The notes beneath the pieces were generated by a model, which saw nothing but the letters and a program-made list of their open reading frames with translations, was not told the origin of the DNA and did no database searches. A stretch of 64,000 nucleotides of DNA from Clostridia bacterium (lineage in GTDB: Bacteria > Bacillota > Clostridia > UBA1381 > UBA9506): the NCBI GenBank assembly GCA_017935435.1, contig JAGBHP010000006.1, forward strand, positions 2,726 through 66,725, written 5' to 3'. The translations under genes were made by a program, and so were the position numbers. The number at the start of each line of letters is the position of its first letter. Within the stretch, counting starts at the first letter, position 1. This document shows positions 1,915 through 60,696 of the stretch, piece by piece.

Positions 1915-3294
1915 ATGATACATAAATTTACTATCGACAACACCAATATCGTTTTAGACGTACACAGCGGCGCTGTGCACGAGGTTGACGATATTGTTAT
2001 GGATATACTCGATTTTTTAGGGGAAAATCGTCCGGAAACCGAAATTGCACCTAACGCTTTGATTGAAAAATTAAGCGGAAAATATTCCGAGCAGGATATT
2101 AAGGATGCATACTCAGACATTTTTGAGCTTACAGAAGAAGAAATGCTTTTTACTGACGATGATTATGCAGAAGAAGCAGGTAGAGTTAAGAAAAATTCTG
2201 TTATTAAAGCGCTTTGTCTTCATATTGCGCACGATTGCAATTTGAGATGTCAGTACTGCTTTGCAGGTGAGGGCAATTACTGCGGTGAAAGAAGTCTTAT
2301 GCCGCTCGAGGTCGGCGAAAAGGCGATTGATTTTGTTATTGAAAACTCAGGAAACCGCAAAAATATTGAGGTTGACTTTTTTGGCGGAGAACCGCTTTTA
2401 AACTTTGACGTGGTTAAAGGTATTGTTAGTTACGCACGTAAAAGAGAAAAAGAAACGGGCAAGCATTTCCGTTTTACAATCACCACCAACGGAATTTTGC
2501 TTGACGAGGATAAAAAGAAATATATTAATGAAAATATGTCAAACATCGTGCTCAGCTTAGACGGCAGAAAAGAAGTAAATGACCGTATGAGAAGAAGAGT
2601 TGACGGCACTGGCTGTTATGATGCGATTGTGGACAAATTTATTGATATGGCAGAGTCAAGAAATCAGGATAATTACTATATAAGAGGAACTTTTACAAAA
2701 TATAATCTTGATTTTGGAAACGATGTTTTGCACTTTGCGGATTTAGGCTTTAAGCAGATGTCGGTTGAGCCTGTCGTTGCAGAAAAAACTGAGCCTTATG
2801 CCCTTACAGAAGATGATTTGGAAACAATCAACAAAGAATACGAACGCTTGGCGGTCGAATACATAAAAAGAAGAAAAGAAGGCAAGGGCTTCAACTTTTT
2901 CCACTTTATGATTGACTTAGACGGCGGACCTTGCGTTTTAAAACGTATTTCAGGATGCGGTGCAGGTCACGAATATGTTGCAATTACGCCTGACGGCGAT
3001 ATTTATCCGTGCCATCAGTTTGTAGGCGGAAATGAAGAGCTTAAAATGGGTAACGTGTTTGAAGGAACGCTGAATCAGGAAATAAAAGAAACATTCCAAA
3101 GCTCTAATGTATATACTAAGCCATCGTGTAAGGAATGTTTTTCAAAATTCTATTGCTCGGGCGGATGTCCTGCAAATGCATATAAATATTGCGGTGATAT
3201 TAATACTCCGCTTGAAATTACCTGCAAATTGCAGAGAATGAGAACCGAGTGTGCACTTTATTGTGCAGTAAAGTTAAGAGAATTAAGCGAATAA
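1915..3294 (+). CDS. SCIFF radical SAM maturase (SPASM-domain thioether synthase)
   Basis: CNLRCQYC radical-SAM motif, C-terminal Cys clusters (CGAG..C, CKEC..CSGGC), adjacent to SCIFF. ATG 1915 with AAGGAG RBS chosen over the track start at 1681. Confidence 0.9.
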   Translation: MIHKFTIDNTNIVLDVHSGAVHEVDDIVMDILDFLGENRPETEIAPNALIEKLSGKYSEQDIKDAYSDIFELTEEEMLFTDDDYAEEAGRVKKNSVIKALCLHIAHDCNLRCQYCFAGEGNYCGERSLMPLEVGEKAIDFVIENSGNRKNIEVDFFGGEPLLNFDVVKGIVSYARKREKETGKHFRFTITTNGILLDEDKKKYINENMSNIVLSLDGRKEVNDRMRRRVDGTGCYDAIVDKFIDMAESRNQDNYYIRGTFTKYNLDFGNDVLHFADLGFKQMSVEPVVAEKTEPYALTEDDLETINKEYERLAVEYIKRRKEGKGFNFFHFMIDLDGGPCVLKRISGCGAGHEYVAITPDGDIYPCHQFVGGNEELKMGNVFEGTLNQEIKETFQSSNVYTKPSCKECFSKFYCSGGCPANAYKYCGDINTPLEITCKLQRMRTECALYCAVKLRELSE

Positions 3295-3353: not shown

Positions 3354-4283
3354 TTAATATTTTAATTCAGGCAGGCACTCAACCGCATTTAAAAAATCAC
3401 GCATAAAATTTGCTTTTTTTATAGCTTTTGTAATCTTTTTTTCATCGGGAAAATTTTTCATAACGTAAAGACCGATTTCTTTCATTTTATTAAGAGTATA
3501 TCTGTCCGAATTTAAAAGCGCAGAATAATCCTCGCTGAGTTTTTTTAAAAATCTTACGAGCTCGTATGTTTTGAGATTATCCCCTCCACGCAGAACTCGA
3601 AAAAGTGCAGGATTTATAACTGCGCCTCTTCCAATCATAGCCGATTTAAGCTCGGGATAAGCCGATTTAATCCTTAAAAAATCTTCTTTTGAAAAGATGT
3701 CGCCATTATAGCACACATTGTTTTTAGATTCGCTATACGCCTTTTTAAAGCACTCCATATTCGGCTCGCCGTTATAGTAGTTAGCTCTTGCTCGTGGGTG
3801 AATAATTAAAAGCTTTAGCGGATATTTATTATAAACCTCCATAAGCTTTTCCATTTCGTCGCCCGAGTCAAAGCCAATTCTTGTTTTTACGCTGACTTTT
3901 AAACTCGTTTTTTCAAAAATTTCATACAAAACCCTGTCGAGCCTTTCGGGAAAGCGCAAAAAACCTGCGCCCCTGTCCTTTTTAACAACCGTACCCGAAG
4001 GACAGCCGAAGTTTAAATTAACCTCCGAAAAACCCACCTCTTTTATTCTTTCCTCAAAGTGGAAAAAAGCCTCCGATGTGTTTACAAGCGTCTGTGGCAC
4101 AAGGTTTATGTCTTTATTTTTTTCGGGAACAATATCCCTTAAGCTTTTAATTGAAACACGCTCATTTTCGCTCGGTGTTATAAAGGGCGCAAAGTAGCTG
4201 TCGCATCCGCCGAAAATTTCATTATGCGCATTTCTGTAAATATAAGATGTAATGCCCTCTAAGGGCGCAAAAAATAAATTCAT
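3354..4283 (-). CDS. tRNA-dihydrouridine synthase family protein
   Basis: Dus/FMN TIM-barrel motifs: LAPLEGIT, NLNFGCP, HPR. Confidence 0.8.
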   Translation of the reverse strand: MNLFFAPLEGITSYIYRNAHNEIFGGCDSYFAPFITPSENERVSIKSLRDIVPEKNKDINLVPQTLVNTSEAFFHFEERIKEVGFSEVNLNFGCPSGTVVKKDRGAGFLRFPERLDRVLYEIFEKTSLKVSVKTRIGFDSGDEMEKLMEVYNKYPLKLLIIHPRARANYYNGEPNMECFKKAYSESKNNVCYNGDIFSKEDFLRIKSAYPELKSAMIGRGAVINPALFRVLRGGDNLKTYELVRFLKKLSEDYSALLNSDRYTLNKMKEIGLYVMKNFPDEKKITKAIKKANFMRDFLNAVECLPELKY

Positions 4284-5791: not shown

Positions 5792-7018
5792 ATGGCAAAT
5801 GCAGTAGTAGGTCAGTCAGGCGGACCTTCAGTTGCAATTAACTCAAGCTTGGCAGGTGTTTTTAAGGGTGCGCTTGAAAATCCTGCAATAGATAAAATTT
5901 ATGGTATGGTAAACGGTCTTCAGGGACTTTTAGAAGAACATTTAACACTTCTTACCGACTCAATTAAAGACGAAAATGATTTAGAGCTTTTAAGACGCAC
6001 GCCTGCATCTTTCCTCGGCTCATGCAGATACAAGCTTCCAAAGCTTGACTCAGGCAGCGACGTTTTTGAAAAGGTAATTTCTATTTTAAATAAATATGAT
6101 ATTAAATATTTCTTCTATATTGGTGGTAACGATTCTATGGATACCGTTATGAAGCTTTCAAACTATGCTAAAGAAAATGGAATTACCGATATTAAATTTG
6201 TCGGCGTTCCCAAAACAATAGATAATGACTTAGTTGCAACAGACCACACTCCGGGATTTGGTAGTGCTGCAAAATATATTGCAACAACGGTTAAGGAAAT
6301 TTCACGTGACAGCTTTGTTTATGATACATATTCTGTTACGATAATTGAGATTATGGGAAGAAACGCAGGCTGGCTCACCGCAGCATCAAGCCTTGCTCGT
6401 GGCGAAGATATGGACGCTCCTGACCTTATTTATTTACCTGAATGTAACTTTGATTTTGATAAATTCATTGATGACGTGAAAAAAGTTGCAGCTAAGAAGA
6501 AAAACGTTATTGTTACTGTTTCTGAAGGTATTCATACCGCAGACGGAAAATACGTTTGTGAAGCCGTTTCGAGCGGTACTGCTGATGCTTTCGGTCACAA
6601 ATACTTAGGCGGAACTGCAAGATTTTTAGAAGACCTCGTTCGTGACCGCTTAGGCTATAAGGCTCGTGGAATTGAGCTTAATATCCCACAAAGATGCGCT
6701 GCTCACATTTCTTCTATGACAGACCTTGACGAAGCAATGCAGGTAGGTATTAAGGCAGTTGAAGCAGCAGTAAGCGGCAAAACGGGTATTATGATGGCTT
6801 ACGTGCGCAAGTCAAACGCTCCTTATACAATAGACTTTGAAGCTCTTGATGTAAATAATATCGCAAATGCAGAAAAGGTTATTCCTAAAGAATGGATTAA
6901 TGCAGATGAAAACGATGTTACTCAGGATTTTATCGATTATGCTTATCCGCTCATTCAGGGTGAGGTAACCATTCCTTATAAAAACGGTCTGCCGGTACAT
7001 CTTGTTTTAAAGAAATAA
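5792..7018 (+). CDS. pfk: 6-phosphofructokinase, long PFK-family type (possibly PPi-dependent)
   Basis: GGNDSMDT, PKTIDNDL and MGRNAGWL PFK motifs; 408 aa. Confidence 0.85.
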   Translation: MANAVVGQSGGPSVAINSSLAGVFKGALENPAIDKIYGMVNGLQGLLEEHLTLLTDSIKDENDLELLRRTPASFLGSCRYKLPKLDSGSDVFEKVISILNKYDIKYFFYIGGNDSMDTVMKLSNYAKENGITDIKFVGVPKTIDNDLVATDHTPGFGSAAKYIATTVKEISRDSFVYDTYSVTIIEIMGRNAGWLTAASSLARGEDMDAPDLIYLPECNFDFDKFIDDVKKVAAKKKNVIVTVSEGIHTADGKYVCEAVSSGTADAFGHKYLGGTARFLEDLVRDRLGYKARGIELNIPQRCAAHISSMTDLDEAMQVGIKAVEAAVSGKTGIMMAYVRKSNAPYTIDFEALDVNNIANAEKVIPKEWINADENDVTQDFIDYAYPLIQGEVTIPYKNGLPVHLVLKK

Positions 7019-7042
7019 TAAAAATTTAATAATTAATTTTTT

Positions 7043-7078
7043 AAATGAGTTCGGTGCTTTGCCGAACTCATTTTGTTT
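7043..7078 (+). terminator. intrinsic terminator after pfk
   Basis: AATGAGTTCGG-loop-CCGAACTCATT followed by TTTGTTT. Confidence 0.8.
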
Positions 7079-7087
7079 GGTCGCGAA

Positions 7088-7342
7088 CGTAGGGGAGGAT
7101 ATTATCCGCCCGAACAAAACATCGAAATGACTTAAACGGGCGGATGAAGGCATCCGCCCCTACGTTGCAGCCGCTGATTTTTCGGTTATGTTGTAGGGAA
7201 TGGATTTATCCATTCCGCCTGTATTGTTGTCAATAGCAGAAGGCATAAATGCCTTCCCTGTAATTTTTGCCGTAATACTGCTGTCTGTATTGTAGGGGCG
7301 GTTCACGAACCGCCCACGGGCAAATCGTGATTTGCCCCTACA
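7088..7342. repeat. REP/BIME-like cluster of GTAG-headed GC-rich palindromic units (units A1-A3)
   Basis: cGTAGGGG...CCCCTACg (7088-7164). TGTAGG[GAATGGA/TCCATTC]...[GAAGGCA/TGCCTTC]CCTGTA (7192-7262). TGTAG[GGGCGGTTC/GAACCGCCC]a[CGGGCAAATC/GATTTGCCC]CTACA (7291-7342). Confidence 0.8.
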
Positions 7343-7395
7343 AAGTTCAATCGTTTGTTATTACATAAATTGGGATTTAACTGTCGGTTAAGCGT

Positions 7396-7548
7396 AGCCT
7401 CCACTGTACCCAATGGGGCAGGCTCTGTAAGGGGAGGTGGGTTTTGCAAAGCAAAACTCGGAGGGGTTGTTATTAAAATACGGTCGTTGATACAAAAACA
7501 ACCCCTCAGTCACCTTTCGGTGACAGCTCCCCTTACACAGGGGAGCCT
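7396..7548 (+). repeat. four-helix junction module, copy 1 (possible structured RNA or ssDNA element)
   Basis: P1 GTAAGGGGAG/CTCCCCTTAC. P2 GGGTTTTGC/GCAAAACTC. P3 GAGGGGTTGTT/AACAACCCCTC. P4 GTCACC/GGTGAC. A second copy lies inverted at 11455-11588. Confidence 0.7.
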
Positions 7549-7563
7549 GTCGCTCTACCAAAC

Positions 7564-7597
7564 GTTAGTGCGTTAAATTGGAATTTAACGCACTAAC
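7564..7597. repeat. 34-nt palindrome with perfect 16-nt arms
   Basis: GTTAGTGCGTTAAATT-GG-AATTTAACGCACTAAC. Contains the recurring AAATTGGRATTTAAC motif. Confidence 0.85.
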
Positions 7598-7610
7598 ATT
7601 TGGTCGTGTT

Positions 7611-7787
7611 TGTAGGGGAGCCCCTCTGTGGGCTCCCGCGGGCGGGCACAGAGACCCGCCCCTACTCAACCAACAGGTAAATTGGGATTTAACGTACGAA
7701 CATTTTGGTGAGATTTGTAGGGGACGGCCTCCCGGACGTCCCTTTTGCATTTAATTTTCTCGGGAGGGCGCAGAGACCCTCCCCTAC
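7611..7787. repeat. REP/BIME-like units A4-A5
   Basis: TGTAG[GGGAGCCC/GGGCTCCC]gc[GGGCGGG/CCCGCCC]CTAC. TGTAG[GGGACG/CGTCCC]...[GGGAGGG/CCCTCCC]CTAC. Confidence 0.8.
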
Positions 7788-7865
7788 GAGTCCAAATCAC
7801 AATCGAAAGCTAAATTCCAATTTACATCCTAAACATATGTATAATTTAGTAATCTAATTCACTTT

Positions 7866-7898
7866 AAAAAAAATCAGCGCAAATATGCGCTGATTTTT
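7866..7898 (-). terminator. terminator after glnN (bidirectional shape)
   Basis: AAAAATCAGCGC-AAATAT-GCGCTGATTTTT. Confidence 0.8.
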
Positions 7899-7920
7899 GA
7901 TATTTAATTACTTATAAGTT

Positions 7921-10002
7921 TTACAATTTAAACAAAAGCTCGCTATATGTAGGCATAGGCCAGTATTTTTCGGAAACAATCGTTTCAAGCTCGTCGGCTA
8001 CTGCACGCAGAAGCTGCATTGCCTCAAACACATCTTTTGAGAAAAACGTTGCTTTTTTGGTTGTATCATCAATTTCTTTTGACTTAATGATTGCAGCATC
8101 TAAAACATCGATTTTTTCATAAAGAGATTTTCCGAGTGCTGAAAGCTTAGATAAGATATCCATTTCGACTTCGCTATCCACCCCAAGCTCTTTTTTGAGT
8201 TTAGCAGTTTTTGCGACTTCTTTTGAATACAATATCACCGCAGGCAAGATATCTCTTTTTGCCATTTCAAGCATTGTGAGTGCTTCGATGTTTAGCACCT
8301 TAATATAAGAATCGAGCTTAACCTCCTGACGTGAAATAAGCTCAGCTTCTGTGTAAACCTTGTGTTTGGCAAAAAGCTTCACATTCTTTTCGCTTGCAAA
8401 CATTGGCAGGCAATCAGCGGAGGAGTGAAGATTTAAAAGTCCTCTTTTTTCAGCTTCAGCTACCCATTCATCAGAATAGTTGTTACCATTAAATATAATT
8501 CTGAAATGTTTTTTTACAGTTCTTTTTATAAGCTTTGAAAGCGCTGAGTTAAAGTCTTCTGCATTTTCAAGCTCGTCTGCAAATTCGCATAAGCTATCGG
8601 CAACAATTGTGTTTATAATAGTATTTATACCCGCAATTGACTGGCTTGAGCCGGGCATACGGAACTCGAATTTATTACCTGTAAACGCAAAAGGTGATGT
8701 TCTGTTTCTGTCGGTTGTGTCTTTGGAAAATCTCGGGAGCATATCAACACCGATTTCAAGCTTTTCTTTTTTGTGCTGACTGTATTCTTCGCCTGAAATA
8801 ATTGCCTCTAAGATTTCTTCGAGTTCATCGCCGACAAACATCGAAACTATCGCAGGAGGAGCCTCGTTTCCTCCAAGTCGGTGGTCATTTCCTGCAGACG
8901 CTACCGAAATTCTAAGTAAATCCTGGTGCTCGTCAACGGCTTTAATAACTGCGCTTAAAAACAGCAAAAATTGTGCATTTTCGCTCGGTGATGCGCCCGG
9001 GTCCATAAGATTTCCGCAGCCTTCAGCCGAAAGCGACCAGTTATTGTGCTTACCGCTTCCGTTTACGCCTGCAAACGGCTTTTCGTGCAACAAACAAACC
9101 AAGCCGTGCTTTTCTGCAACCTTTTTCATCGTTTCCATAATAAGCTGATTGTGGTCGGTTGCAACATTTGTAGTTCCAAAAATGGGAGCAAGCTCATGCT
9201 GAGCAGGTGCACCCTCGTTGTGCTTGGTTTTGGAAAGTATTCCAAGAGTCCAGAGTTCTTCGTCTAAGTCCTTCATATACTCTGAAATTTTTGTTTTTAT
9301 GCTTCCGTAGTAATGGTCATCAAGCTCCTGACCCTTGGGCGGTTTTGCCCCGAAAAGCGTCCTTCCTGTGAACATAAGGTCATCACGCTTATCGTAATAT
9401 TTTTTGTCAATTATAAAATATTCCTGCTCTGCGCCAACTGAAGACACAACTCTCGGCGGATTTTTGCCGAATAAATGCAGTATTCTTTTTGCCTGTACAT
9501 CAATTGCTTCCATTGAGCGCAAAAGCGGTGTTTTTTTGTCAAGTGCCTCGCCTGAATATGAGCAAAAAACAGTCGGTATGTAAAGCGTTCCGTCTTTTAC
9601 AAAAGCATAAGAGCTTGGGTCCCAGGCGGTATATCCTCTTGCTTCAAAGGTTGCCCTTAAACCGCCTGACGGGAAAGAAGATGCATCGGATTCGCCTTTA
9701 ATAAGCTCTTTTCCTGAAAACTCCATAATTACTGTGCTTCCGTCTGTCGGCGTAATAAAGCTTTCGTGCTTTTCGGCAGTAACGCCTGTCATAGGCTGAA
9801 ACCAATGTGTATAATGCGTTGCGCCTTTTGAGATTGCCCAGTCCTTCATTGAGTTTGCAACAACGGTTGCAATGGAATTATCAAGTGCCGCACCGCTATC
9901 TATCGTTTTTTTAAGCTTTTTGAAAATGTCCTTTGGCAGAGTTTCCCTCATTACGTGCTCGTTATAAACCGAGCGACCAAAAATTTCAGGTACGTTTGTC
10001 AT
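7921..10002 (-). CDS. glnN: glutamine synthetase type III
   Basis: About 690 aa. THYTHWFQP..TAEKH and the GSIII catalytic region. ATG at 10002 preferred over the upstream TTG at 10020 used by the track. Confidence 0.9.
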   Translation of the reverse strand: MTNVPEIFGRSVYNEHVMRETLPKDIFKKLKKTIDSGAALDNSIATVVANSMKDWAISKGATHYTHWFQPMTGVTAEKHESFITPTDGSTVIMEFSGKELIKGESDASSFPSGGLRATFEARGYTAWDPSSYAFVKDGTLYIPTVFCSYSGEALDKKTPLLRSMEAIDVQAKRILHLFGKNPPRVVSSVGAEQEYFIIDKKYYDKRDDLMFTGRTLFGAKPPKGQELDDHYYGSIKTKISEYMKDLDEELWTLGILSKTKHNEGAPAQHELAPIFGTTNVATDHNQLIMETMKKVAEKHGLVCLLHEKPFAGVNGSGKHNNWSLSAEGCGNLMDPGASPSENAQFLLFLSAVIKAVDEHQDLLRISVASAGNDHRLGGNEAPPAIVSMFVGDELEEILEAIISGEEYSQHKKEKLEIGVDMLPRFSKDTTDRNRTSPFAFTGNKFEFRMPGSSQSIAGINTIINTIVADSLCEFADELENAEDFNSALSKLIKRTVKKHFRIIFNGNNYSDEWVAEAEKRGLLNLHSSADCLPMFASEKNVKLFAKHKVYTEAELISRQEVKLDSYIKVLNIEALTMLEMAKRDILPAVILYSKEVAKTAKLKKELGVDSEVEMDILSKLSALGKSLYEKIDVLDAAIIKSKEIDDTTKKATFFSKDVFEAMQLLRAVADELETIVSEKYWPMPTYSELLFKL

Positions 10003-10044
10003 ATTTTCGTTTCCTTTCAAGCTGTAATTTACGTAAAAATAAAC

Positions 10045-10083
10045 AAAAAAGGCTGTGCGACAAAAAACAGTCGCACAGCGCCT
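10045..10083 (-). terminator. terminator hairpin between csp and glnN, downstream of a promoter-like site
   Basis: Minus strand reads GCTGTGCGAC-TGTTTTTT-GTCGCACAGC followed by CTTTTTTG. Confidence 0.75.
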
Positions 10084-10104
10084 TTGCTGTAAAACTATAT
10101 TTAG

Positions 10105-10133
10105 ATTATACTATAAAGGAAATATTTTGTCAA
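10105..10133 (-). promoter_or_regulatory. consensus sigma-A promoter upstream of the glnN leader
   Basis: Minus strand TTGACA, 17-nt spacer, TATAAT. Confidence 0.6.
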
Positions 10134-10151
10134 TACCTTTTTTAGTCCCGA

Positions 10152-10367
10152 TTACACAACAGGAACTACATTTACAGCACGTTTTTTAGCTTCATTTTTC
10201 GGGTCAGCCTCAACGTCGAATGTTACTGTCTGACCTTCCTGAAGAGTTTTAAATCCGTCACATACGATAGCTGAAAAATGTACGAATACATCATCGCCGC
10301 CCTCTTCGTTTGCAATAAAACCATAGCCCTTTTCTGCATTAAACCACTTTACTGTACCTTTGTTCAT
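10152..10367 (-). CDS. cold-shock protein (CspA family)
   Basis: [18 protein letters not shown]...VFVHFSAI carries the RNP1/RNP2 motifs. GGAGG RBS. Start at M15 of the track ORF. Confidence 0.93.
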
Positions 10368-10407
10368 TTTGTAAACCTCCAAAAATATATTTATTACTCT
10401 TATGCTC

Positions 10408-10471
10408 AAAAAAAATAACCCGCATATTTTTGTAAATCATCAACCCCAACAATGACTTACAAAAATATGCG
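10408..10471 (-). terminator. 15-bp hairpin plus U8 inside the predicted csp 5' UTR (also positioned to terminate the upstream SLOG gene)
   Basis: Minus strand CGCATATTTTTGTAA, 21-nt loop, TTACAAAAATATGCG, then GGTTATTTTTTTT. Confidence 0.75.
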
Positions 10472-10503
10472 AGTCCATAGCAAGCTTTTAAGAATACCCT
10501 TTT

Positions 10504-10532
10504 ATTATATGACATTTTCCGCAATTTGTCAA
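10504..10532 (-). promoter_or_regulatory. perfect consensus promoter for csp, overlapping the stop codon of the upstream gene
   Basis: Minus strand TTGACA, 17-nt spacer, TATAAT. The TGA stop of the SLOG gene lies inside TTGACA. Confidence 0.6.
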
Positions 10533-11086
10533 TACTTGTTATCGGTATTATCAGAAAAATAGGATTTTAAGGGTTTAATAAACACGTTAACAATCTTCTT
10601 CTTTTTCTTGTTTGCGTATTCATAAGCAGCTTTTGTTCCGCTTTTTGGCTGGTAGTCTGTAACAGAGCGTTTGCTCGCCTTTTGTTTTGAAGGTAAATAG
10701 CTTTCGTCATAATACATAACACAGACGTCTGATTTATCTATCATTTCGCAGTTGCGCTCAACGTAAGCCGCCTTGCCTGCGTTTGTGATTTTAGCAGGAA
10801 AATATGTATCGTCAAAATCTCTTAGGAGATATTTTCGGTAGCTTTCGCTTATTTCGGGATTTTCAGCTCGTACATAAATGCGCTCAATATGAGGATATCT
10901 GACTTTAAGTGAAGTAACAACATTTACGCAAAGCTCGTTAAATTCGCTCTTGCTTCCAAATAAAAACATCTCAATTTTATCCTCAGTAATAAGCTTTTCA
11001 ACTGTTTCGTAAACCCTGTTCTTTAGTATTTCACGTGATTTTATTTTTCTGTGTCCTAAAAAGCAACAAGCTTTCTTTCCGTCCAT
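10529..11086 (-). CDS. SLOG-superfamily protein, YpsA/DUF1273-like
   Basis: CFLGHRKI N-terminal motif, FLFGSKSEF, and IDKSDVCVMYYDES block. These parallel B. subtilis YpsA (ITGYKPHELG, ISGQLG, IDKSDGLLLLYDPE). Confidence 0.6.
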   Translation of the reverse strand: MDGKKACCFLGHRKIKSREILKNRVYETVEKLITEDKIEMFLFGSKSEFNELCVNVVTSLKVRYPHIERIYVRAENPEISESYRKYLLRDFDDTYFPAKITNAGKAAYVERNCEMIDKSDVCVMYYDESYLPSKQKASKRSVTDYQPKSGTKAAYEYANKKKKKIVNVFIKPLKSYFSDNTDNKY

Positions 11087-11332
11087 AAATCATACTCCAA
11101 TCATAAAAAAATGCGCAGCCACCTTTTGACAGAGAAGCTGCGCACAAAAAACGCAGTGACTCCGTTTCAAAAAGGTTGCTACACCTGTTTAAGCATAATC
11201 AAGAATAATATAATATTACACCGTTCAAGAGTATGATGAAACAAGAGTGTACGCTTTTTACATATAGCGTACCTCTCGTAACGGTGTTATATTCAAAAAA
11301 CCTGCCAAAATTGACATGCTTAAAAGTGTAGC
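11087..11332 (-). promoter_or_regulatory. about 245-nt structured 5' leader with terminator directly before the RBS (candidate riboswitch or attenuator)
   Basis: Nested helices P1 (11177-11196 with 11316-11333), P2 (11212-11225 with 11280-11293), P3 (11241-11255 with 11266-11279). Terminator TGCGCAGC, 17-nt loop, GCTGCGCA, T7 at 11105-11144. Confidence 0.5.
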
Positions 11333-11338
11333 ATATAT

Positions 11339-11367
11339 ATTATACCACACATATAAAATTAATTCAA
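11339..11367 (-). promoter_or_regulatory. promoter for the SLOG-gene leader
   Basis: Minus strand TTGAAT, 17-nt spacer, TATAAT with TGg extended -10. Confidence 0.6.
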
Positions 11368-11454
11368 GAAAAAATTAATTGAAATTTATATAACATTTTA
11401 GTAAATTATTTGGAAAAATTGGGATTTACATTAGCGATGTTACGGCGTGCGTTA

Positions 11455-11588
11455 GGCTCCCTTGTGTAAAGGGAGCTGTCACCGCATGGTGACTGAGGGA
11501 TTGTTTTTGTTATAACAATCGCATTTCTAATGACAATCCCTCCGAGTTTTGCTCCGCAAAACTCACCTCCCTTTGCACAAGGGAGGCT
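11455..11588 (-). repeat. four-helix junction module, copy 2 (inverted relative to copy 1)
   Basis: Same P1-P4 architecture as 7396-7548. Two stem positions changed on both sides (G:C to A:T in P1 and P3). Hairpin loops differ. Confidence 0.7.
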
Positions 11589-11665
11589 ATGCTCGACCAC
11601 AACATTTGGTCGCATAAATTCCAATTTAGCACGCAACTAATGGCTGTGCTGTCATAGGGACAGGC

Positions 11666-11846
11666 GTACCCGAGGGGGCAGACCCTCCTCGACGTCTCGT
11701 TTGTGCCTCACGAGAACAATGTTATGGTGGGACGTCCGGGAGGCCGTCCCCTACAACATAACCGCCGGTTTTGGGCGAGATTGTAGGGAACGGGCTTGCT
11801 CGTTCCGCTCATATTTTTCGGGAGGGCGCAGAGACCCTCCCCTACA
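11666..11846. repeat. REP/BIME-like units B1-B3
   Basis: GTACCCGAGGGGGCAGACCCT motif. [GGGACG/CGTCCC]CTACA at 11729-11755 is the exact reverse complement of 7716-7742. TGTAG[GGAACG/CGTTCC]...[GGGAGGG/CCCTCCC]CTACA. 11819-11845 is identical to 7761-7787. Confidence 0.8.
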
Positions 11847-11884
11847 AACCCAACCAGATGTTGGTGCGCTAAATTCCAAGTTAA

Positions 11885-11920
11885 CAAAAAAGCGAGCACA
11901 AATTTAAGCTTTGTGCTCGC
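11885..11920 (-). terminator. intrinsic terminator after purC
   Basis: Minus strand GCGAGCACAAA-loop-TTTGTGCTCGC followed by TTTTTT. Confidence 0.85.
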
Positions 11921-11937
11921 CGAATTTATTATATTTT

Positions 11938-12621
11938 TTATCTATTTAAGATAAGCTTTGTGAGTTCAACGGGTTCAACGATTTTGTCGCCCTTATAAAC
12001 ACGCATATTACCTGATGCGATTTCGTCGATTAAGATAACTTCGCCATTGTTATAGCCAAACTCAAATTTAATATCCCACAAATCGAGACCGATTTCTTTT
12101 AAGTCATCAGCAACAATTTTTGTAATCTTAAGTGTCTGCTCTTTCATGCTTTCAAACATTTCAAGTGACATAATGCCGAGAGCAGCTAAACCTTCGCCTG
12201 TAACGAGCGGATCGCCTTTAGCGTCGTTTTTAAAAGTACATTCAACGTAGCCACCATCAAGCGGTGTTCCGTCTTCGATATATTCACCATATCTTCTTAT
12301 AAAGCTTCCTGTTGCAACCAAGCGGCAGATAACCTCAAGACCATGACCGAAAACCTTGCCGGGAAGAACCTCCATTGTAGCTTCATCTAAGTTAGCACTT
12401 ACATAGTGAGTCTTAATGCCTGCTTTGTTTAAAAGCTCAAAATAACGGATTGAAGTTTCTAAGTTTGCTTTTCCGATACCTTCAATTGTAAGACCAACGC
12501 TATTTTCGCCGGGGTCAAATACGCCGTCTTTACCTGTGCAGTCATCCTTGAACTTAAGCATCACATTGCCGTTATCAAGAGAATAAACGTCTTTTGTTTT
12601 TCCTTCGTAAATCTTTTTCAT
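11938..12621 (-). CDS. purC: phosphoribosylaminoimidazole-succinocarboxamide synthase
   Basis: [14 protein letters not shown]-terminus; SAICAR synthetase blocks throughout. Confidence 0.92.
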
Positions 12622-26828: not shown

Positions 26829-27036
26829 TATATAGGCTGTGACATGGCATACGATGAAGTGGGAGGTTGCCGCAAATGATGCGGGTTTTTCCATGGAGAA
26901 TGTCCGATTCATGAAACCGGGCGACAGAGTCATAGGCATAACAAAACGTAACTTGCGCTTGCGCTTATCCTTAGGGATTTTGCGCATATACGCACTTTTT
27001 GCGTCTTGTTTGCTGCTTAATTTAAGCACGATTGCG

Positions 27037-60499: not shown

Positions 60500-60579
60500 T
60501 GTAGGGCACAGCGTTTACGATGTGCCGAAAACGGTTCGTACCCGATGGGGCAGACCCTCGGAAATCGCCGAACCCTACA
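60500..60579. repeat. REP/BIME-like unit pair (third island)
   Basis: TGTAG[GGCACA/TGTGCC]...GGTTCG-GTACCCGATGGGGCAGACCCTCGG-...CGAACCCTACA. Confidence 0.75.
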
Positions 60580-60696
60580 TCATAAACTTTTAGATGCTAC
60601 AAGGTAGTAGGGGTCATACGTGTTTGCACCTACGGTTTTAGGTATTTATACATAGTAAATGTTTATTAAGACTCTTCTTTTTTTCTTTCAAAATGT

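Follow-up and report, generated by a model that had tools for sequence, protein, structure and literature searches.

A BIME-like mosaic of GTAG-headed palindromes, probably mobilised by a RAYT, between pfk and glnN in a Clostridia genome

Repetitive extragenic palindromes (REPs), the bacterial interspersed mosaic elements (BIMEs) and the domesticated REP-associated tyrosine transposases (RAYTs) have been studied almost solely in Proteobacteria. In E. coli, REPs carry a 5' GTAG beside a GC-rich imperfect palindrome and cluster downstream of genes, and BIMEs are composed of inverted pairs of two different REP types (Y and Z) joined by conserved linkers. The corresponding transposase, TnpA_REP (RAYT group 2; 'REPtron'), is a Y1 HuH enzyme some 150-165 aa long that bears HuH, Tyr and GTAG-contact residues (PMC8266576, PMC6006769). 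In the GTAG super-family as a whole, GTAG or GTGG precedes by 0-2 nt the foot of a 20-40-nt palindrome, copies typically exceed 100 per genome and lie mostly behind convergent or co-directional genes, and the cognate RAYT gene, with its catalytic Tyr in a Y---NP motif, usually has REPs at its flanks. No Firmicutes appeared among the GTAG REP hosts of Di Nocera et al. 2013 (PMC3733652), which agrees with the remark, in an earlier note on the DNA considered here, that such elements are described mainly in Proteobacteria; Firmicutes hosts were not mentioned by Nunvar 2010 either. RAYT group 1 was recorded in Clostridia by Bertels 2017; in the classification of Quentin 2018, this group is subclass 2.1, whose members are long and REP-less (PMC5581495, PMC6006769). 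The present analysis concerns region 7088-7830, hereafter island 1, of a 64,000-nt stretch of contig JAGBHP010000006.1 from a Clostridia bacterium (the window). Judging from its sequence, island 1 is probably a BIME-like mosaic of GTAG REP elements, i.e. inverted doublets of two different hairpins joined by linkers with an AT-rich box, which would be mobilised by a RAYT.

The heptamer GTAGGGG occurred 11 times in the window where 2.3 occurrences were expected, a count reached in 0/100 shuffles. Strict units, defined as GTAG followed within 0-2 nt by a stem of no less than 6-8 bp in which one mismatch was tolerated, a loop of 2-8 nt and a stem GC content of at least 50%, numbered 14, compared with 0.97 +/- 1.05 (maximum 5) in 100 dinucleotide shuffles; the control tags CTAC, AGTG and GTGA gave 1-2 units each in the same search. 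All but one of the 14 were located in three intergenic islands: nine in island 1 (at 7089, 7163-, 7193, 7292, 7341-, 7612, 7665-, 7717 and 7787-, the minus sign marking reverse units), three at 11729-11845 and one at 60501. The remaining unit, at 6261 inside pfk, looks like a chance occurrence. GTAG stood directly at the hairpin foot in the 13 island units, where about one such case was expected. The region had been read in the earlier note as a series of GTAG-headed palindromes, with at least a dozen units over the three islands, and both statements were upheld by these counts. Stems of 8-10 bp, loops of 2-6 nt and 0-1 mismatch make the units GC-rich and often imperfect palindromes. Their stems varied in sequence while staying complementary, as had been noticed: the quoted pairs GGGCGGTTC/GAACCGCCC with GGGCAAATC/GATTTGCCC, and GGGAGCCC/GGGCTCCC with GGGCGGG/CCCGCCC, are present, and GGGCGGG/CCCGCCC is indeed replaced by GGGAGGG/CCCTCCC elsewhere.

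Units of island 1 were organized in five inverted pairs of the form GTAG(hairpin A)-spacer-(hairpin B)CTAC, and hairpins A and B differed in stem sequence in all five. Doublet 1 (7089-7163) is composed of GTAG(GGGAGGATA/TATCCGCCC), a 26-nt spacer and (GGGCGGATG/CATCCGCCC)CTAC, its right hairpin being of the canonical RAYT-linked type (see below). Doublet 2 (7193-7262) reads GTAG(GGAATGGA/TCCATTCC), 22 nt, (GAAGGCA/TGCCTTC)CCTGTA, with a decayed right tag (CTGTA). Doublet 3 (7292-7341) is tight, with a 2-nt spacer; it occurs as an inverted copy at 1631-1682 of L001, a contig of the same strain lying just upstream of the window. The same 2-nt spacing is found in doublet 4 (7612-7665), GTAG(GGGAGCCC/GGGCTCCC)gc(GGGCGGG/CCCGCCC)CTAC, whose outer arms are TTTGGT...ACCAAC; arms of the type ATTTGGT-N-GTAGGGG ... 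CCCCTAC-N-ACCAAC are conserved in the island. Doublet 5 (7717-7787) consists of GTAG(GGGACGGCC/GGACGTCCC), 19 nt and (GGGAGGG/CCCTCCC)CTAC. Both of its hairpins recur in a second island (11729-11754 and 11820-11845), and the left stem displays a G.A mismatch that is common to the copies 7721-7742 and 11729-11754 (a 28-nt match) and to a related hairpin of locus L087. Folding of the doublets as single-stranded DNA surpassed that of shuffled sequences (z from -3.3 to -6.0), with -23.7 kcal/mol and z=-6.0 for doublet 1, z=-5.7 for doublet 2, and, for doublet 3 (7289-7344), a predicted three-way junction closed by TGTAG/CTACA at -19.5 kcal/mol and z=-5.6.

With tag, GC-rich imperfect palindrome, inverted pairs, clustering and extragenic position all found, the REP/BIME architecture proposed in the earlier note was recovered at the sequence level; pairs clustered after genes, five in island 1, were also encountered in the second island and in L001. 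The claim that the island is built from GTAG palindromes holds for the five doublets. It had overlooked some 40% of island 1, which consists of a core (7398-7550, discussed below), four TAAATTGGRATTTAAC boxes and conserved linkers. The box is a 16-nt AT-rich near-palindrome that bounds modules. Copy 1 (TAAATTGGGATTTAAC) lies at 7366-7381 (+), copy 2 (7574-7589) is the centre of a 48-nt palindrome (7557-7604) with 23-nt arms that are 96% complementary, copy 3 is at 7678-7693 (+), and copy 4 is inverted (TAAATTCCAATTTA, 7811-7824, - strand).

This organization differs from that of E. coli by its host, a member of the Bacillota, by many more hairpin variants per island and by its linkers, which contain the AT-rich box instead of the IHF-site L motif of E. 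coli BIMEs. In Pseudomonas, where REPINs are associated with RAYT groups 2 and 3 (Bertels and Rainey), the replicating unit is likewise an inverted REP doublet. Yet, a REPIN has two copies of a single REP as its arms, which pair into one long hairpin, whereas the partner hairpins differ here and are predicted to stand side by side or in a three-way junction. The doublets are not REPINs in this strict sense, and the arrangement is closer to the Y/Z pairs of E. coli. The definition of the GTAG super-family given by Di Nocera et al. 2013 (including SMAG of Stenotrophomonas and the families of Opitutus and cyanobacteria) fits the present units, in spite of a survey without Firmicutes/Clostridia hosts. 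Elements of the IS200/IS605 family and their PATE derivatives share single-stranded hairpins, a 5' guide tetranucleotide and recognition by a Y1 HuH enzyme. Unlike them, the units described here are of 25-75 nt, with no tnpA or tnpB between the hairpins, and the related proteins belong to the RAYT class and not to IS200. As for the BOX, RUP and SPRITE repeats of Firmicutes, they resemble island 1 as modular short-repeat mosaics of Gram-positive intergenic space, but lack a GTAG tag or RAYT link; no sequence similarity to them was seen and Rfam gave no match.

Island 1 spans the gap between the stops of two genes coding for PFK (5792-7018, +) and a type III glutamine synthetase, glnN (7921-10020, -). 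Each gene owns a terminator hairpin, an intrinsic one for pfk (7043-7073, + strand) and a bidirectional one serving glnN (7869-7898). The island lies between the two, where the earlier note had placed it. Its description as GC-rich is correct relative to the window, the excess being modest (48.7% vs 39.7%), and the open reading frames (ORFs) 7355-7576(+) and 7565-7750(-), which had been considered spurious translations, indeed had no Pfam match.

Strain comparison showed that the island is variable. The conspecific contig CAZNNF010000247.1 (L301), from the fragmented metagenome-assembled genome GCA_964574375.1, with a 99% identical PFK and a glutamine synthetase identical at 435/440 aa, has pfk and glnN stops only 81 nt apart, separated by one terminator hairpin that matches the pfk terminator of the window. 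Since flanking sequences agree as far as 7079 and resume their match at about 7903, the window contains an extra 823 nt (7080-7902) comprising the whole of island 1 and the second terminator. An island identical in all related strains, which the earlier note had named as an outcome contrary to its reading, was therefore not what the comparison returned. The terminator of glnN falls inside this variable block in the island-bearing strain; the island-free strain uses one bidirectional hairpin for both pfk and glnN. Little could be learned about the empty site from pfk orthologues of 92%, 84% and 70% identity, whose gene order differs, and the nearest relatives of PFK outside the species were at only 60-70% identity.

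These data bear on the idea that the hairpins are RNA or DNA structures selected by the host (terminators, protectors of mRNA 3' ends, sites for nucleoid proteins or gyrase) and spread by ordinary recombination without a dedicated transposase. Their position after gene ends is in its favour, and so are the hairpins 7239-7256 and 11787-11806, which precede T-runs and score terminator-like, the core half-units that directly follow stop codons and carry a T-run in some metagenome loci, and the contribution of a glnN terminator by the variable block. Yet, island 1 lies beyond the terminators of both genes and is dispensed with by a conspecific strain, units occur in both orientations, the conserved GTAG tag plays no part in termination, and identical modules are common to unrelated loci and species. 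Moreover, stem mismatches in the Clostridia units presented below displayed no G.T excess and, therefore, no RNA-wobble signature, i.e. none of the G.U-type bias relevant to structures acting as RNA. We consider this explanation unlikely.

Three further islands allowed the modules of the mosaic to be compared. Island 2 (11418-11885), downstream of the purC terminator, displays in order a box, the core (11453-11588, reverse), a box, a hairpin with a so-called D insert, a lone REP (11729-11754), a GTAG doublet (11783-11845) and a box. Island 3 (60501-60633), between convergent genes, contains GTAG(GGCACA..TGTGCC) followed by (GGTTCG..D insert..CGAACC)CTAC and a weak GTAGGGG..CCTAC unit; it is identical in L304. 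The fourth was found in L001 (1400-1980), between spoIIIAH and an aspartokinase-like gene. Modules common to the four islands were 84-100% identical, with changed order and orientation. All four are extragenic, three between convergent genes and one between co-directional ones, and those checked lie outside terminators. A 21-24-nt piece, GTACCCRAKGGGRCAGRCYCT, was observed at four places in three independent contexts (window 7405-7425, 11660-11690 and 60536-60560; L001:1757-1785), always near the tip of another palindrome, in its loop or apical part (core hairpin 1, a GGGAC..GTC REP and a GGTTCG..CGAACC hairpin), as if hairpin loops served as insertion points. Four metagenome contigs of the same strain all terminate inside island 1, as expected where assemblers meet a multi-copy repeat, which suggests many copies in the genome. 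Same-strain contigs come from ruminant gut samples (ENA, project code XIEF21), the island-bearing strain being present in the metagenome assemblies ERZ28654397 and ERZ28654337, and the SCIFF, spoIIIA and spoIIR genes together with an S10-Clostridia leader are markers of Clostridia; this ribosomal protein leader (Rfam RF03136, 51.8 bits) is located at 26846-26927 of the window, ahead of the ribosomal protein operon, and supports a placement in Clostridia.

The distribution of boxes could alternatively point to composites resembling miniature inverted-repeat transposable elements, moved by a DDE-type transposase that would use the TAAATTGGRATTTAAC box as terminal inverted repeat, the GTAG hairpins being passengers. 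In L001 and in island 2, the core is indeed enclosed by inverted boxes, and units of roughly 105-130 nt run from one box to the next. Boxes 7574 and 7678, though, are direct and not inverted, and no target-site duplication was visible at the single empty/filled comparison. The box was not seen beside GTAG units in viral contigs and is rare in other Clostridia loci, while GTAG doublets are widespread, and no transposase is nearby. Composites of this kind appear very improbable.

A lack of RAYT-like genes in the genome and its relatives had been named in the earlier note as contrary to its reading; such genes were found in relatives. The rumen Ruminococcaceae metagenome-assembled genome (MAG) L134 carries a RAYT-like ORF of 149 aa that is flanked by GTAG REP arrays. 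Upstream (L134:7540-8000), 81-nt repeats stand in tandem at least five times, each with the REP GTAGTGGCCGATGCCCACATCGGCCA, and downstream there are three more REPs in alternating orientation. Translation of the 81-nt array yields a spurious ORF of 269 aa in which VVADAHIGHKAAGRAGF is repeated. The L134 protein matched Pfam Y1_Tnp at 25.4 bits (cut-off 23) and NCBIfam REP_Tyr_transpos at E=3.5e-22 and 78.9 bits (cut-off 80), its sole match in PDB being E. coli TnpA_REP, 4ER8 (E=4.7e-10). More generally, Clostridial homologues displayed E-values of 1e-15 to 1e-22 and 57-79 bits against NF047646, under the 80-bit equivalog cut-off, and in this respect, as by the REPs that many of them hold inside the ORF, they differ from E. 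coli TnpA_REP. They keep the HIH and YIEENP motifs, and their IWQRSFYDHAIR segment aligns to W94, Q95, E100, H101 and R104 of 4ER8, all kept except for an E100 to D replacement (PMC8266576, PMC6006769) that was described for RAYT subclasses 2.5/2.7 (PMC6006769).

The family of these proteins of about 150 aa is large, with 454 members at E<=1e-10 (query, L134 protein) and 6292 at E<=1e-20 (query, P0036). Some are named 'transposase [Clostridia bacterium]' in their sources or 'RayT' by JGI. Fixed neighbours were recorded over many samples, namely dapA-RAYT-pepP for P0047 and NUDIX-RAYT-rubrerythrin for P0036, P0022 and P0013. Such constancy is typical of genes that have been domesticated and are inherited vertically, and P0047 and P0036 recall in this the RAYTs of Pseudomonas REPINs, which are single-copy, fixed in position and vertically transmitted. 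P0049, from genomes of 29-32% GC, was found on short contigs, flanked by GTAGTGGTCGTATGCCCACATCGACC-type REPs.

Clostridia loci with a RAYT include L134, L087, L297, L281 and L289, and two of them, L087 and L297, display hairpin types of the window. In L087, REPs occur just upstream of and within the RAYT gene, and the 26-mer GTAGGGGACGGCGTCCTCGACGTCCC, identically repeated 1.4 kb away, is of the same type and has the same G.A mismatch as window 7717-7742. L297, which carries P0036, contains an intergenic doublet GTAGGGAATGGTCTTGACCATTCC...CTAC (1993-2062) built like window 7193-7262 (hairpin type GGGAATGG..CCATTCC). The right hairpin of doublet 1 (7138-7163, GGGCGGATGAAGGCATCCGCCCCTAC) is one compensated pair apart from a REP in the P0036 gene (GGGCCGATGAAGGCATCGGCCCCTAC) and belongs to the type of the in-gene REP in RAYT clusters P0013-P0048; its translation, GRMKASAPT, resembles the 'GPMKASAPT' segment of RAYT clusters.

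Most Clostridial RAYT ORFs hold two in-frame GTAG REP units at fixed positions (proteins P0005-P0120). The forward unit follows the 'FITIC' strand and encodes (I/V)VGxDAHIxP. The reverse unit encodes GTM(R/K/W)ASSPT directly behind the HuH motif and is an insertion relative to E. coli TnpA_REP. Examples are found at L297:10112-10137 and 10253-10278, L281:3115-3140 and 3256-3281, and L087:3322-3347, 3510-3533 and 3574-3599. The variant carried depends on the lineage and can equal REPs outside the gene. Between the syntenic orthologues L297:10001-10462 and L300:2501-2962, which are 95% identical at the DNA level, six clustered changes were confined to the first in-gene REP (GTAGGGGGCGATGCCCTCATCGCCCC vs GTAGGGGACGGCGTCCTCGACGCCCC); from the sequences, it looks as though one REP variant had replaced another. 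No mention of in-gene REPs was found in the literature in a non-exhaustive search.

Such a clustered 6-nt replacement within otherwise 95%-identical genes would also fit if the palindromes were by-products of replication and repair, generated by quasi-palindrome template switching and gene conversion among copies without an element-specific enzyme. Template switching would automatically restore complementarity in stems that vary, and contig L303 departs from the window exactly at a repeat. This contig (L303:3685-4441), from the same species since PurC is identical, matches window 11060-11937 through island 2 to the end of the core, beyond which other repeat modules and a NAPRTase gene are found instead of the YpsA-like gene; the divergence would be due to a rearrangement that took place at the repeat, or else to chimeric assembly of one of the two, possibly of the window itself. 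Left unexplained by such processes are the invariant GTAG/CTAC tags, the presence of the same units at unlinked loci and in other species, and the association with RAYT genes. An origin as by-products appears very improbable, like the box-driven composites. Compared with the REP/BIME reading, each of the three competing explanations accounts for fewer observations.

The dispersion of GTAG doublets was examined with the pattern TGTAGGGG-N12-20-CCC-NN-GGG-N12-20-CCCCTAC, which matched 29 IMG/VR contigs and at least 120 stretches of GTDB species genomes. Among the matches listed, 56/120 were of Clostridia type (Oscillospiraceae, Faecousia, Eubacteriales, Ruminococcus, Gemmiger, Lawsonibacter and Sedimentibacter), the others coming from Opitutaceae, Oscillatoria and Pasteurellaceae, which are known REP hosts, and from Acidobacteriota, Omnitrophota, Planctomycetota and others. 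The 56 Clostridia loci listed contained 269 units of 192 different sequences, about half of the units being located in the 13% of sequence outside long ORFs, a roughly 7-fold enrichment. A RAYT-like ORF occurred inside the 8-kb stretch in 4/120 of the doublet loci listed (L079, L087, L134 and L145). Some window hairpins were found elsewhere almost or entirely unchanged. Two identical copies of GGGAGGGCGCAGAGACCCTCCC-CTAC, the right hairpin of doublet 5, occurred in L042, a Clostridia MAG from goat rectum, and GGGCGGATATTATCCGCCC, one change away from window 7093-7111, was shared by four genome MAGs and by one viral contig of IMG/VR. In L085, L126 and L147, from Thermoanaerobaculia (Acidobacteriota) and a Proteobacteria MAG, GGGAGCCCC..GGGCTCCC followed by GCGGGAGGG.. 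form GTAG doublets much like doublet 4 (7612-7665). This likeness could be due to convergence on simple G/C stems or to interphylum REP/RAYT transfer.

The core of island 1 (7398-7550, + strand) represents a second type of repeat. It is a nested palindrome of about 150 nt with five hairpins, laid out as hairpin 1 (CCTCCCyT..AGGGGAGG), a variable hairpin 2, a GGAGGG-stem..CCCTC, hairpin 4 (GTCACC..GGTGAC) and hairpin 5 (GCTCCCC..GGGGAGC), the left half being an inverted version of the right one. In the window copy, hairpin 1 displays a 21-nt insertion (7405-7425). Copies were located at window 7398-7550 and 11453-11588, at L001:1435-1575 and in L154-L273; the first is 95% identical to L001 1410-1563(-) and 85% identical to window 11454-11571(-), and changes among copies were compensated. 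As single-stranded DNA, the core folds at -43.7 kcal/mol (z=-9.3). Since the palindrome is nested, local hairpins and a long-range stem could not be told apart by RNAalifold run on 10 cores.

Its invariant 20-nt motif, TCAGTCACC-N4-GGTGACAGCTC, was found in at least 120 metagenome stretches of 31-65% GC from human gut and other sources, the matches listed representing roughly 50-80 different contexts, many with the right half alone. Neither this motif nor the combination of box and GTAG pattern was encountered in IMG/VR viral contigs. Among the matches listed, the core was near GTAG hairpins in only 4/83 contexts, and the only proteins that recurred beside it were products of orthologous housekeeping genes. 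It was treated as a separate, independent palindromic repeat family lodged in the same permissive sites as the GTAG units. A role as terminator was rejected for the core, which was followed by a T-run in only 8/82 of the cases listed and displayed no orientation bias relative to genes. An identity with a known non-coding RNA, omega-RNA or HEARO was dropped because Rfam gave no match on island 1, core included, either at gathering scores or at E<=10 (7000-12000 scanned). Nothing relevant on the motif string or on REPs of Ruminococcaceae emerged from a search of the literature.

Turning back to the GTAG units, the mechanism would most likely be the one worked out for E. coli and Pseudomonas, transposed by analogy to this organism. 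Each unit would fold when its DNA is single-stranded, e.g. on the lagging-strand template. A RAYT encoded elsewhere in the genome would bind the GTAG tag and the hairpin, then cut and rejoin the strand, so that doublets would be copied or moved to other permissive sites. Islands could grow by repeated insertion beside or into earlier units and by recombination between copies, and would persist because the space after convergent genes is neutral.

Several observations weigh against this interpretation. A crude HuH...Y regular expression and tblastn with 120 RAYTs revealed no Y1/RAYT ORF in the 64-kb window or the 4 kb upstream, and the same searches were negative in L001-L004 and in 120 core-motif loci. 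Only one window hairpin (7138-7163, GRMKASAPT type) closely matches in-gene REPs of RAYTs; peptide matching of in-gene to window REPs retrieved this type alone and tied no RAYT to this genome. The variety of stems, about 10 different hairpins in one island, is far above that of classical REP families, where one RAYT corresponds to one REP type, and many units may therefore be decayed or nobody's substrate. Units were counted over about 68 kb of this genome only (4 islands, some 20 units). Finally, the 823-nt indel may be a deletion in L301 and not an insertion in the window, and its junctions share only a short T-rich microhomology with no clear RAYT-type signature.

Broad surveys appear not to have described in Clostridia any GTAG REP/BIME system accompanied by a clade of small RAYTs, even though automated annotation already calls some of these proteins RayT. 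The greater novelty could lie in the in-gene REPs and in the core family. A wider and more tentative picture, which we hold as possible only, is that of a self-referential REP-RAYT system in gut Clostridia. Small, chromosomally fixed RAYTs would carry an inverted REP pair in frame (after the first beta-strand and after HuH), and the in-gene REP would be swapped between close orthologues. Genomic REPs would have diversified into dozens of hairpin types in non-identical doublets (three-way junctions), sharing their sites with a widespread five-hairpin element without an Rfam family.

The strain-variable GTAG mosaic, together with thousands of small Clostridial RAYT homologues, suggests that the system is common in a dominant gut lineage. 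It also has practical effects, since these repeats break metagenome assemblies, create spurious ORFs and may yield chimeric joins. Likewise, the natural hairpin variants and the REPs inside RAYT genes constitute a natural series for studies of substrate recognition by Y1 enzymes.

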